A DNA stretch of 64,000 bases from Callorhinchus milii (Eukaryota): assembly GCF_018977255.1 (NCBI RefSeq), contig NW_024704742.1:128404001-128468000 (forward strand). Direction: 5' to 3'. The stretch's first letter is position 1; every line of letters begins with the position of its first letter. Below, piece after piece: positions 13,207 to 47,822 of this stretch. Below the pieces are notes generated by a model. The model had not been told where the DNA came from and ran no database searches. It saw only the letters and a program-made list of their open reading frames with translations. A program made the translations under genes and the position numbers.

Positions 13207-13306
13207 ATGATGGATGTTGAAAACGACTCGATCAGCAGCAGTCCTTCAGGAGCATCGAGAGAATATAAAGTTGTGATGCTCGGAGCTGGCGGAGTTGGGA
13301 AAAGCG
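13207..13306 (+). CDS. RIT2: RIT2 (Rin) small GTPase, coding exon 1: [33 protein letters not shown], includes G1/P-loop
   Basis: ATG at 13207 (second ATG at 13210). The GAGGVGKS P-loop is preceded by SREYKVVML as in Rit-family proteins. Donor G|GTAGGT follows 13306 (phase 1, 100 nt). Confidence 0.93.
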
Positions 13307-19997: not shown

Positions 19998-21269
19998 ATA
20001 AGGTGCTATATCAAATGCAATGATTATTATTATAACATCACCACTGAGAATCGTGTTTAGTAGTAAGGATAGCCGGCCACCTGACCTTGGGTAATTCCTA
20101 ATCAACATATTATGAATATCTAAAAGTACACTGCACATGAGGCCCTGTTAAATGATCGAGCAACATCTCGGACAGGAACGGTCTTGAGTGATTGATTCTC
20201 ATTTAATGCCACCTTGTATTTTTATGCTCGGCAGTGATCTATATTGATGTATATGGGTGCATCAGAAATCTTTTTAAAGGTTCCGAAGGGGCTTGTAAAC
20301 ATTTCCTAAAGCTGCTCAGAATTGTGAAACGTGATGATGAAAAACATTGCTAGAAATGCATCATGTATTGCTCAGCATAAAACATTACTGACATTTGATA
20401 TCACTTGTTTGGAACAAAATTCTACCTTCTTCCACCTGGGTCAAAATTTACTCTATTTTTTAACATTTCAGAACATCCAAAATTTGGCAAATTGTCAAAT
20501 ACAGTCTGAACTCTTATGCCCTATCTTATTCTTATTCCTTATGTTATTATTACACCTTATCTAATACTCCTTTATACTAGCCTGATTCTCCAGACCAGTG
20601 CTGAGGGGAAGCGATGTTTTGTTGAGGTGCCATCCTTCACATGAGATGATATACTGAGGTCCTGTCTGCTTTTCTAGTGGTTATTAAAGATCCCATGGCA
20701 CAAATCAAAAAGATAAGGGACTTTCTCCGAGAGTCCTGGCCAACCATTCCCCAATAAAATTTCTTATACACTTCATGGCTGTTTGTAGGACATTTCTGCA
20801 TGCAACTTGGCTGCTGTGTTCACCCACAAAATAAACAGAGACTACATTTTTGTGTATAATCTGTGAAGCACTTTGAGACATTCTCCCGATGTGAAAGACA
20901 CAATATCAAACGCAAGGATTATTATTATCATTGTTACTTGTATCTTATTATTGAAACTAGTTTCCTGTAGTCATAAGCATTTACAGAAAGTAGGCAAAAT
21001 TAAGACTGTATTTAAGAATTTGCTAAATCCTACATGTTCTGAAATGTTAATTAATTTTAGACCCAAGTGGCATTTCTCACCTCTTGTCATGTGGTAAACT
21101 GGCAAAGCATGAATTCCCACAATGAGTCCACCTGAACGGACAGAGGGGACCTCGGTTTAATGTCTCATTAGAAAGACGGCACCTCTGACAGTGCAGTACA
21201 CCCGCACCATTGCATTGGGCTCAAAGTCCTGATGTGGGGCTTGAACCCACAACCTCCTGACTTAGAGGT

Positions 21270-29024: not shown

Positions 29025-31362
29025 GTTGAGGTTAAAACTGCAATACAGTGCTGATGGGACGCTACGCTGTCAGAGGTGCCGTCCTTCAACTGAAATGATA
29101 AACCAAGGTCCTGTCTGCCTGTTCAGGTGCATGTTATCGATGCTACTACATCATTGGAAAAGAAAAGGGAGTTTTCCATTGTCCTGACCAAAAATTTCCT
29201 GGGGAAAATTGGACATTCACTTCATGACTGTCTGTGTACAAAATTGGCCGCAGTATTCTCCTACAAAATACTTATTCACTGTACTTTATAGTAAATCCTA
29301 TAAAGCACTTTAAGACGTCCTTCTGACATGAAAGGACAATATGAAATGCAAGAATTATTATTCTGTGCACTTGGCAGAAACTGGTATGAAGGATGTGGCC
29401 TCATAACACTTAGGTAGTGTTAATGAGGCAATGTATTTCTTCCTACCTCAAAGATTGTAACCTTCTCACTCCCTATGATAGTATCTCCAGGTACTTCGCT
29501 CTAGGAGATCAGTATTCACAGGGTAAACATCAAAATAAAAAGGGAAACCAAGTGCAATTTTAGCCGGCATAGGAGATGCACAAAACATGTTTACAGCATT
29601 AAGCCATGTCTCATTTGCAATAACTCATCTGTCCGTACAGAGTTTCAAACTGCCAAAGCCTGCGGCTTCCGCACAGAGTGATTTACTGAAAATCATATGA
29701 GAGGCCAATTGATTAGAACAGTAAATTCTGTGAGTGTCCATAAAATGTGAACAATTTAGCTCCTATTATCTACCGTTTTTAAGAAATGCACTGAAATGTT
29801 ACTCGTGGAAACGTCATTTGTGAGTTGTCCTAAAATTATTTGTGCCAAAGGTTTCTCTCTGTAGTTCACATGGGGTTCTAATTCATAATAATAGTAATAA
29901 TAATCCTTACATTTGGTATAGTGCCTTTCACACTGGGAGGATGTCCCAAAGCTCTTTACAGCATATACTGTAAAGTGCAGTGACTGTTTTTGTGGGTGAA
30001 TGAGGCAACCAATTTGCAAACAGTAACATCCTCCAATCAGCTATGGAGTGGGTGACCAATTTTATATGGCGTTTGTTGGCCAAGACACTGGGAGAAACTC
30101 TGTTCTCATGGCATCTTTAAGATCCAACAGAACCAGCAAACAGGGTCTTCGTTCAATGTCTCCTCCAAAGTACGGCAGATCCAACAATGCAGAACATTGG
30201 TGTGTTGTCATAAACTATATAAGTTCTACATTATCCAATTTGTGCAAACAAGTAGAGTGGTCCTAGCTGGAGCAGCTGCTGGAAGCTCTCATTGTCAAGC
30301 TATGTGGTTTTGCTTGGTTAAACTCCAGCAGTACCCCAACTCACGCCCCTGTTTATCTAGCAGTAATTAGGAACTCAGTTGTTAGTCGATTAGCGGATCG
30401 CTTTCCTGGGATAATAATCCCTCAAAAAAAAATTGGTCAATCAATCCATGACTGTTTGTGGGAAACTGCTGTGTGCAATTGGTCACCATGTTTCGCCCAC
30501 AAAATATACAGTTAATTTTCCGATATATTCTGTGAAGCACTTTGAGACATCTCAACGACGTGATAACGTGCTATATCAAATGCAAGGATTATTTACTATA
30601 TAATTATTACAGACACAGGGAACATCCCATGTGTAGGAGGCACACATATGCGTGACACATGGTTAGTCTATATGCTATAGATCTGCACACTTTGTTTATG
30701 ACCATGTTTCACTGTTTTTGGCAAATCTGGCCTAATATTGTGATATTAAAAGTGTGAAGTTACTCAGAAATAAGCATTGCATTGCAGGAGAAGATTTAGA
30801 CTTACAGTGTGTTTGTTGACTGATTTGATAGCACTCTTGCCTGAATCAGAAGGTTGTGGGTTCAAGCTCCTCATTAGGACTTTCAAATCAGTCTGGGCTG
30901 ACCACCCATTAAAAGGCTGAGGGTGTGCTGCATTGTTGGTGTTAGAATTTACACTTTTTGTATAATGTTAGAATCATAATACATGTTGCGAACGGGTTAA
31001 CCTTTAAGTTAAGTGTGGGGGGCAACTGGACTGACACTCATGATTAACACTCAACAGCAACAAAAGGCAACTCTCAAGAATAGCAGCTAACGAGCAAATT
31101 GCTTAAACTGGAGGACCTTGGTACCATCCCGGGATACTGATAAGAAATAACCAGTCACTTAAAAGGAATGTACTAATGATCCCACCTTACAAAATAATAA
31201 GCCTCAGATAACAGAGGTCTTAAGGACAATGTGTATGTGTGCTGAGGCACGTACACCCCATGAGGTGTTCACGTGAACCCAGCATGATTTCGACCAGGTG
31301 ATCTAATGTCCGCACCATGATTGGACAAGCATCGGTATAAAAGTTCCGATAACTTTGTGTAC

Positions 31363-31677
31363 GGGGCCGTCCCGGGTTGCGGAGACAAGGGTACGGGAGA
31401 TGGGGCCGTCCCGGGTCGCGGAGACAAGAGTACGGGAGATGGGGCCGTCCCGGGTCGCGGAGACAAGGGTACGGGAGATGGGGCCGTCCCGGGTCGCAGA
31501 GACAAGGGTACAGGAGATGGGGCCATCCCGGGCTGCGGAGACAAGGGTACGGGAGATGGAAGACTGAGGATATCAGATGGGGCCATCCCGGGTCGCGGAG
31601 ACAAGGGTACGGGAGATGGGGCCATCCCGGGCTGCGGAGACAAGGGTACGGGAGATGGAAGACTGAGGATATCAGAT
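31363..31677 (+). repeat. 39-bp GC-rich tandem array (7 units plus two 21-bp spacer units) inside the LTR
   Basis: Unit GGGGCCGTCCCGGGTCGCGGAGACAAGGGTACGGGAGAT starts at 31363, 31402, 31441, 31480, 31519, 31579 and 31618; GGAAGACTGAGGATATCAGAT at 31558 and 31657. Confidence 0.97.
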
Positions 31678-31974
31678 GGAAGATTGAAAGCTGTCAGCAA
31701 GAAGACTGAAAGCATGAAGAATCAAGCTTGTGTGCTGTAAAGACACAGTGTTGAACTCGAGATATCTACGGTGGTATTGTCCTGTTATACGATCTGTTGA
31801 TTGTACTGGCCTTTGGTCTGACCCATCGGGATATTGGGGAATAACGAACGAATAATAATAAAACAGTCAGATATCTGGTTGCAAACGGATTATGGCTGAT
31901 TTTATTTTCTAACAGATTGGCGTAGTCGGCAGGATACTCTGAATTAATACACTCAGCAGTTGACGTGTTTGTGA

Positions 31975-32147
31975 GTCCGGTACGACGGTAACTAGTAAAT
32001 AGTTGGGACGGTGGCCGTGGCACTCGCAGAAATTAGGAGTCCGGTACGACCGTAACTAGTAGATAGATGGGACGGTGGCCGTGGTACTCGCAGAAATTAT
32101 GTGTCCAGTACAATCGTAACTAGTAGATAGTTGGGACGATGGCCGTG
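31975..32147 (+). repeat. 64-bp tandem array (about 2.7 units) in the 3' part of the LTR
   Basis: Unit GTCCGGTACGACGGTAACTAGT...GGGACGGTGGCCGTGG..CTCGCAGAAATTA starts at 31975, 32039 and 32103. Confidence 0.95.
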
Positions 32148-33394
32148 CCTGAGGGCAATTAACCAAGTGTATTAACCCATTGGGATTCTGAGTATTAAAG
32201 AACCAATATAATCCATTTGAGCGAGTGTCTCTTATATGGATTTTCTTACATTGGAAAACACCTTCAGATGAGGTGTTTTTTTCTGTCCAGGTGGACATTA
32301 AAGATCCTATAGCATGACTTGAAAAGAAAAGGGAATTTCTTCAGGTGCCCTGGCCAACAATACCCAAATGAAACATGGAGGTTAATTTGTACCCAAAAGC
32401 CATGAAGTGATTGACGAATTTTTATCTGGGATATTGTTGGCGAAACAGTGTGATGTTCAGGCACATTTCACGGACTCGACTACTGTTATTTGTTATTTCT
32501 GGGGGGTTAAATGTAAAGCTCTGGATGTAAGATCAATCATCAAGCACTCAATTTGTGGGGATTGAGACCCATGGCAGTGAAGTGGCAGTATATAAGAAGC
32601 GCCATTAAATAAGGAATTGAAAGTGGATCAGTGGTACATTTAACTGCTTCATAATCTGAGAGTGAGAAGTTGATAGTTATTGTAACCTCAAAACCTTAAG
32701 AGTGTGTTACAGCCTTGAGCACAGTCCCAAGCACCTGAAGCTTTAATCAGCTATATATCTCTACTTCTTCTGCGTCATAATCACTCGTAGATAATCTCTC
32801 CTGTTGAAATAGAATTCTTAAGATGGTCATTGTGTGCGGTCCCTTTACAACGTGGGTTTAACATTGAAATTAGGTTCTTAATAAGTAGGACTGTAGGGAA
32901 TTGCTGTAAACTCACCAGCCAAATGGATATTTCATTAATTAGATAGGAATCAGTATTAAACTAAAGCTGGCGATTTCAGATGTACGTTTCATCATTAACA
33001 TTCATCTGAATCGGACCACACATTATACCTTGCCAGATGATCACAAGAGACAGCTTGAGTGCAGATATTTTGTGTGGTAACTCTTTAGCAATAGCAATGC
33101 TGGGACGAAAGGTCGTGGCCCCTGATGTGAGGATTATCACTGGCAATAATGGCATTGACCAAAAATGCAGGCCAAAAGTGTCCTTTGGTTATTGACTGAG
33201 TTCATCACAGTAGTTTTGCCTAGTCACCCAAAGCCTCAGGGAGCCACTGTTGTCATCACCGATAATAATCATCACATTACATATCACGCTTCTCCCTCTT
33301 TCCCCAAACCCCCCCCCACTCTATCCCCATCCCTATCCCTTGGATTTTAACTCCAACAGTACCGATAGGGATCTGTTCACTGGGAAATATATAA

Positions 33395-42669: not shown

Positions 42670-42726
42670 CAATGACAATGCAATTCATCAGCCATCGTTT
42701 CCCTGACTACCACGATCCTACAATAG
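42670..42726 (+). CDS. RIT2: RIT2 coding exon 2: (A)MTMQFISHRFPDYHDPTI(E), effector/switch I region
   Basis: Pyrimidine tract plus TTACAG acceptor at 42669 and G|GTAAGC donor after 42726. 57 nt, phase 1-1. HDPTIED is the Rit/Rin effector signature, and PDY matches RIT2 rather than RIT1 (PED). Confidence 0.95.
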
Positions 42727-47748: not shown

Positions 47749-47822
47749 AAGATGCTTACAAGACTCAAGTGAGGATAGATGATGACCCTGCATATTTGGA
47801 CATTTTGGATACTGCTGGACAG
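47749..47822 (+). CDS. RIT2: RIT2 coding exon 3: (E)[25 protein letters not shown]3 box
   Basis: CCCTGCAG acceptor at 47748 and CAG|GTAAGT donor after 47822. 74 nt; the three exons total 231 nt = 77 codons in frame. KTQVRID and PAYLD are RIT2-type residues. Not present in the supplied ORF track. Confidence 0.95.

Follow-up and report, generated by a model that had tools for sequence, protein, structure and literature searches.

A complete long terminal repeat, a tRNA-Ser primer-binding site, a leader and a second long-terminal-repeat end between one pair of TTGG repeats in a RIT-family intron of Callorhinchus milii

We analysed a stretch of 64,000 nucleotides from Callorhinchus milii (assembly GCF_018977255.1, contig NW_024704742.1, positions 128,404,001 to 128,468,000 of the forward strand), here called the window, in whose own numbering all positions are given. 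The subject is an insert of 1311 bp at 30940-32250, lying within the first coding intron (13307-42669, 29.4 kb) of a RIT-family gene on the plus strand. The insert is a non-coding relic of a long terminal repeat (LTR) retroelement of a multi-copy family. Between one pair of TTGG repeats it holds, in this order, a complete LTR (LTR-A), a primer-binding site (PBS) for tRNA-Ser, a leader, and the R/U5 (repeat and unique 5' region) end of a second LTR type, type B. An earlier note on the same DNA had described a 1.3-kb solo LTR with a plain U3-R-U5 layout (U3, unique 3' region) reaching to 32250. The retroelement relic stands, whereas the layout does not: U3-R-U5 ends at 31914, and the PBS, leader and second LTR end that follow lie inside the putative target-site duplication (TSD), unlike in an ordinary solo LTR. 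It may nevertheless be a solo product, provided that the whole unit integrated as an abnormally extended LTR, and an origin of this kind is the one that we favour, at about an even chance of being right.

Composition of the insert and its relatives

The motifs from which a solo LTR had been proposed are all present, namely TG at 30940, CA at 32249-32250, a 7/8 inverted match between these ends, TATAAAA at 31336, AATAAA at 31857 and an exact TTGG on both sides (Table 1). However, the window holds 21 instances of TG..CA ends 300-2000 bp apart that combine an inverted match of at least 7/8 with a 4-bp direct repeat, so that this pattern alone stands at chance level.

The first 975 bp form an LTR with perfectly inverted termini, followed by the PBS after a spacer of 3 nt. 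The same 18 letters occur in a human tRNA-Ser template oligonucleotide (PMC3299991). Furthermore, 57 of the 60 metagenome loci examined, taken from 109 that carry 15 PBS letters and a T-loop motif, were called as tRNA-Ser. The PBS 18-mer has no other match in the window and none in 100 shuffles of it. Viral contigs gave no match to the tRNA-Ser pattern or to the PBS; a search of them with the 15-nt LTR start gave 96 matches, none longer than 33 nt, and these are therefore taken as chance. Within LTR-A the 39-bp array has 5.1 copies at 93%, with a higher-order period of 99 bp (2.1 copies, 97%). Neither this array (z -0.13) nor the leader (z -0.06) showed unusual folding, and no purine run of 7 or more, as a polypurine tract (PPT) would give, was found in 31915-32250. 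At position 31341, within the TATA box, nearly all aligned relatives carry G (6252 of a depth of 6292 in one sequencing run, X1 below), which makes the TATAAAA of this copy nearer to the canonical TATA box than the usual form of the family. About 50 nt upstream of the TATA box, U3 contains an imperfect palindrome of 28 bp at 31259-31286.

Contigs of four public sequencing runs (X1, X2, X3 and X5) were aligned to 30500-32700, and the following concerns the 32 pieces listed out of 86,149. In three contigs (X2 records 12 and 14, X3 record 22) the match breaks off precisely at 31914 and 102-180 unlike letters follow, whereas X5 record 25 has 161 other letters and then matches from precisely 30940 onwards. 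Other copies thus have both termini of the 975-bp LTR, among them the left terminus given in the earlier note; the right terminus given there, 32250, recurs in one X2 contig. In this contig, of depth 20.4, 9 letters link 32250 to 31926. Judging by its equal depth it is X2 record 15, which shows 12 differences over 141 nt of leader; its remaining 63 letters would be accounted for by 54 nt of B end and the 9 linking letters. There the B end precedes a shortened PBS-like stretch and the same leader, in the place that a U5 end would take. From this arrangement we infer that 32250 is probably the natural U5 end of a related LTR type.

Two further kinds of contig depart from the present copy. Contigs in X1-X3 with depths of ~160-215 lack two letters across the spacer and PBS (31915-31923) and apparently represent an amplified, imperfect PBS. 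In one X1 contig (depth 25.4) a single letter separates position 31177, in U3, from 32127; this would be another internally deleted copy. Summed contig depth, to be read as a hint and not as copy number, is ~8-14 in the unique flank, 1,900-25,600 in the LTR, ~200-375 in the leader and ~1,000-1,170 at 32218. The depth of X5, perhaps an RNA run, is concentrated on 31388-31757, with no cover of 31980-32201; neither starts and ends nor strand and level can be read from contigs, and no conclusion is drawn from this pattern. At the left junction exact contigs of X1 extend over 27 letters of the insert, and at the right junction those of X5 over 18, where bridging needs 31. The locus points to an abundant tRNA-Ser-primed family with a 4-bp TSD and at least two LTR types in this genome.

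The B end resembles the end of LTR-A in two places. Its positions 32175-32212 match 31821-31859 of LTR-A at 30 of 38 positions, which none of 500 shuffles reached, and the last 11 nt of the two ends agree at 10 of 11. Beyond the two ends themselves, the sense strand of the window holds a single near-match to the terminal 11 nt, at 20455. The B end also pairs with the leader behind the PBS at -16.3 kcal/mol, against -7.9 kcal/mol for the A end; equally good pairing arose in 19 of 1000 shuffles for the B end and 722 of 1000 for the A end. This comparison was made post hoc; among 1278 unrelated windows, at least 8 pair more strongly than B end and leader. The pairing recalls the U5-leader stem named in PMC1865047. 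An interrupted inverted repeat (31934-31953 / 32166-32196) with a perfect core of 10 bp brackets the 64-bp array of the leader, and could be a candidate stem of the U5-leader type.

The insert interrupts a short interspersed nuclear element (SINE), and the earlier observation that this SINE rejoins across it holds in pairwise alignment: the joined flanks align over the junction to 15 of 16 other copies, at 55-66% identity. This means that no large piece of the flanks is missing. None of 20 BLAST matches to the joined empty site spans the junction, and no empty-site joint was found among the 15 joints listed out of 247 in the contigs. The spacing between two SINE anchors is 13 nt in all five copies that have both; here it is 10 nt with TTGG collapsed and 14 nt uncollapsed. 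The SINE is heavily decayed, and its profile score stays flat at 127-133 bits when 0-10 letters are dropped. The window is dense in old SINE copies, with at least two related tail types (for example 30499-30604).

The many retained CpGs had been read as a sign of youth. The observed/expected CpG ratio of the insert, 0.89, is indeed the highest among windows of 1311 bp sampled every 200 bp (median 0.40). However, 48 of the 64 CpGs fall in the repeat array and leader and the ratio in U3 is only 0.52, and at 20 of the 37 in-element positions listed (51 further ones lie beyond the list) at least 90% of the X1 depth differs from this copy, which has therefore aged. The insert is younger than the host SINE, yet not brand-new.

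No retroelement open reading frame (ORF) was found among the 8 scanned of 15 ORFs listed in the insert. A frame of 86 amino acids with an LRRCT match had no passing stretch and is taken as spurious. Rfam gave no match to the insert, and the 64-kb window contains no second copy of it.

Table 1. Positions of the insert, its parts, the interrupted SINE and the coding exons of the host gene in the window
Feature	Position	Strand	Remark
Host SINE, 5' part	30800..30939	+	approximate start; 55-66% identity to other copies
Left TSD copy, TTGG	30936..30939	+	
Complete LTR, A type (LTR-A)	30940..31914	+	975 bp; perfect 8/8 terminal inverted repeat, 30940-30947 / 31907-31914
U3 (inferred)	30940..31360	+	TATA box 31336-31342; U3/R boundary inferred from TATA spacing
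GC/CpG-rich tandem array, 39-bp units	31363..31679	+	in inferred R region
AATAAA polyadenylation signal of LTR-A	31857..31862	+	57 nt before LTR-A end
PBS	31918..31935	+	18/18 complement of tRNA-Ser 3' end (AGA/TGA/CGA group), 3 nt past LTR-A end
5' leader	31936..32147	+	64-bp tandem array, 2.7 copies, at 31973-32147; candidate splice donor 31971
B end	32148..32250	+	diverged relative of LTR R/U5 end; left boundary approximate
Right TSD copy, TTGG	32251..32254	+	
Host SINE, 3' part	32255..32440	+	approximate end
RIT-family coding exon 1	13207..13306	+	holds the P-loop; 17.6 kb upstream of insert
RIT-family coding exon 2	42670..42726	+	opens with in-frame ATG; 10.4 kb downstream of insert
RIT-family coding exon 3	47749..47822	+	

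Origin of the arrangement

Both LTRs of a new provirus are copied from one strong-stop DNA (PMC3187697), so that a left end of type A and a right end of type B within one TSD need an explanation. We favour, with about as much for it as against it, a composite 'extended LTR' of 1311 bp that arose in reverse transcription and was subsequently cut down to a solo copy. RNAs of the A and B types would share the PBS and leader and could therefore be packaged together. Minus-strand synthesis would be primed at the PBS of a B-type RNA, and ~100 nt of U5 and R would be copied. In an aberrant first-strand transfer, this B-type strong-stop DNA would then jump into the leader of an A-type RNA at ~32148 and not into the 3' R. 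The product would be the same if an RNA that was chimeric beforehand were primed at a second PBS further downstream. Synthesis would continue through leader, PBS, U5 and R, make the normal jump at R and copy U3, so that both LTRs would become 1311 bp long, each beginning as type A and ending as type B. Integrase would use these two ends and make the 4-bp duplication, and recombination between the LTRs would later remove the interior.

In favour of this origin are the LTR end at 31914, at which the three contigs from two runs cease to match, the perfect PBS, the homology of the B end to the R/U5 end, and the X2 contig in which a B end stands ahead of a PBS-like stretch and leader. Moreover, the leader meets the B end within its R-like part. 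Transfer of the first strand may take place between two molecules (PMC3187697), and in human immunodeficiency virus (HIV), 61 of 395 deleted proviruses had R/U5 junctions that were ascribed to aberrant first-strand transfer (PMC12657518). The summed depth, higher over LTR-A and the B end than over the leader, is a weak hint in the same direction, and so is the stronger pairing of the B end with the leader. The favoured origin asks for one aberrant jump and otherwise common events, and would explain, at the same even chance, both the matched TSD and the exact stop at the CA end.

Several points weigh against an extended LTR. No full-length copy with two 1311-bp LTRs was found among the contigs, and the arrangement of B end plus PBS was seen in one contig of one of the four runs. 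With the last 11 nt fixed, the global similarity of the A and B ends is not significant (p 0.17-0.45). The SINE spacing does not prove a TSD, and a 4-bp match has a chance of 1 in 256. The HIV models predict products without a 5' U3 (PMC12657518); since U3 is complete here, one has to suppose a second jump and, after it, a switch of template. Finally, a deletion after integration would yield an identical final sequence.

The main rival is an internally deleted provirus, in which a full-length element integrated and later lost the interval from the leader to its last bases. We regard this as a genuine though not a probable origin. LTR, PBS and leader in succession are the normal 5' end of a provirus, and the XtERV-S elements include deleted copies that keep PBS and leader as well as LTRs replaced in part (PMC8278194). 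The B end could have arrived in two ways. In one, the 3' LTR was of type B through intermolecular plus-strand transfer, recombination before integration or gene conversion, and TSD-flanked elements with unlike LTRs have been proposed in rice (10.1101/452573). This way needs two uncommon events, namely unlike LTRs and then a multi-kb non-homologous deletion. In the other, the B end was a native internal duplicate, and the deletion used terminal microhomology of 10/11 nt with the 3' LTR. The 10/11 match is present, and the shortened PBS behind the B end, together with the two-letter-short variants in X1-X3, fits an unused PBS carried along as an internal passenger, since progeny PBSs follow the tRNA (PMC4549124). 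Against this way, recombination would have acted on 11 bp despite the 975 bp of LTR homology on offer. Moreover, if the B end were an internal duplicate, it should be no more abundant than the leader, and the depth hint, weak as it is, goes the opposite way.

Alternatively, the 1311-bp unit could be the LTR of a replicating lineage that has absorbed the old PBS and leader, uses the integrase end of a sister subfamily and makes an RNA with two PBSs, either of which could serve for priming; the unit would then not be a single event. We consider this unlikely. The X1 contig that joins 31177 to 32127 and the two-letter-short PBS variants are compatible with further extended-LTR copies, without being proof of them. 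If true, such a two-PBS lineage would document, naturally and in the germ line, the way in which LTRs gain new boundaries and subfamilies come about.

Fusion by deletion of two insertions, an A-type provirus and a nested or adjacent B-type LTR, with TTGG as a coincidence, is more doubtful still. In its favour, the pattern of termini plus TSD is common by chance (the 21 occurrences above), and the SINE spacing fits 'no duplication' (+1 nt) about equally to 'duplication' (-3 nt). Against this, across the site the SINE is continuous to within ~3 nt, so that both insertions would need essentially the same target base, and where independent insertions recombine, TSDs that do not match are to be expected (PMC1950507). 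A plain U3-R-U5 solo LTR of 1311 bp with an incidental PBS-like stretch would account for the TG..CA ends, the matched 4-bp repeat and a TATA box followed by AATAAA, and can practically be set aside in view of the perfect inverted end at 31914, the 18/18 tRNA-Ser complement 3 nt further on and the other copies that end at 31914.

The extended LTR that we favour would make the locus a likely germ-line fossil of a reverse-transcription error documented so far mainly in somatic HIV proviruses. A literature search that took in few subscription journals found no LTR that in nature reaches on across its PBS and into its leader; the closest published case was an extension of 8 bp in a canine solo LTR (PMC6407205). 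The locus also shows that solo-LTR annotation can place an LTR boundary wrongly.

Effect on the host gene and other features of the intron

The earlier note had placed the element in intron 1 of RIT2, in sense orientation. The strand is right, and so is the first coding intron of a RIT-family gene. The best match of exons 1 and 3 among solved structures is RIT1, and we take the gene to be RIT2, presumably, from diagnostic residues that differ between the paralogues.

It had also been suggested that the element could start or truncate RIT2 transcripts, which is possible in principle from the signals in its sequence. The insert runs in the direction of the gene and has a TATA box, an AATAAA and a donor-like site at 31971 that could splice to exon 2, which starts with an in-frame ATG. 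On the other side, such hexamers are frequent in intron 1: its sense strand has AATAAA 19 times, including 9 that precede the insert, and TATAAA 17 times. That the LTR would measurably start a RIT2 transcript, or truncate one at its AATAAA, appears improbable to us, and most likely the insert has little effect on the host gene. The function of a Ras-family GTPase needs the P-loop, and as this is encoded in exon 1, a protein started from the LTR would lack it and could not function as a GTPase. The locus is thus retroelement debris with an instructive structure, and would be weightier if it belonged to a replicating lineage or were linked to RIT2 by transcripts.

The same intron contains, in sense orientation, a near-full-length, frameshifted long interspersed nuclear element (LINE) at 16446-~19980 (+) with an APE endonuclease (PF03372) and a reverse transcriptase (PF00078). 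Fragments of this LINE family occur on both strands. A perfect 5-bp tandem repeat of 15.2 copies lies at 1052-1127.

Comparison with known systems

The insert has no pol, and because of this it is not assignable among class I endogenous retroviruses (ERVs), foamy-like elements and Gypsy. Our guess is a class I-like ERV first and Gypsy second. Gypsy/Ty3 elements are compatible with a 4-bp TSD and a Ser PBS. The literature covered by our search gave no shark or fish family that combines a Ser PBS with a 4-bp TSD.

Class I (gamma- and epsilon-like) ERVs share with the insert the 4-bp TSD, reported for gammaretroviruses (PMC5210030), the TG..CA ends and a full PBS of 18 nt. The tandem repeats in the leader resemble those of zebrafish ZFERV. 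The elephant-shark CmiERV lineages II and III belong here, and the ERVs described from sharks include epsilon-like and snakehead-like lineages (PMC4422223), to which the insert is likened by description only. Fish foamy-like ERVs likewise have a 4-bp TSD and a long LTR; their PBSs are for Lys, Thr or Asn, in contrast to Ser here, although according to the authors the PBS type is not strictly conserved in these elements (PMC5210030, PMC5512871).

The class III ERV-S elements, among them XtERV-S (PMC8278194), come close in other ways. They have a PBS for tRNA-Ser(AGA/TGA) and TGT...ACA termini, and XtERV-S has many solo LTRs besides the deleted copies with PBS and leader that recall the insert. 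However, XtERV-S has a 5-bp TSD and an LTR of 705 bp, against 4 bp and 975 bp here, and its deleted copies keep two LTRs and mostly the PPT, which the insert is without (PMC8278194). The 5-mers that flank the insert differ and only 4 bp match; with this 4-bp TSD the insert is not filed with ERV-S.

Terminal-repeat retrotransposons in miniature (TRIMs), such as Helenus of animals, are also short and non-coding, have a PBS after the LTR and, in animals, a 4-bp TSD (PMC10886601). A TRIM layout was rejected, the insert being without a second matching LTR, a PPT or LTR sequence derived from small RNA (PMC10886601).

Complex and abnormal LTR retrotransposons of plants are, like the insert in the origin that we favour, TSD-flanked chimeras of two related elements that were formed before integration (PMC1950507, 10.1101/452573), and they provide precedents for chimerism of this timing. 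The plant chimeras are full elements with three LTRs or with swapped LTRs, whereas the insert consists of an LTR with PBS, leader and part of a second end.

In the defective proviruses of HIV-1 (PMC12657518), as in the insert, a partial R/U5 follows directly on the 5' LTR end, the PBS and the leader. The insert differs in being a germ-line fossil, in its complete U3, in the matched 4-bp TSD and in a right end from a diverged subfamily; that reservoir study did not sequence the integration ends of the proviruses (PMC12657518).

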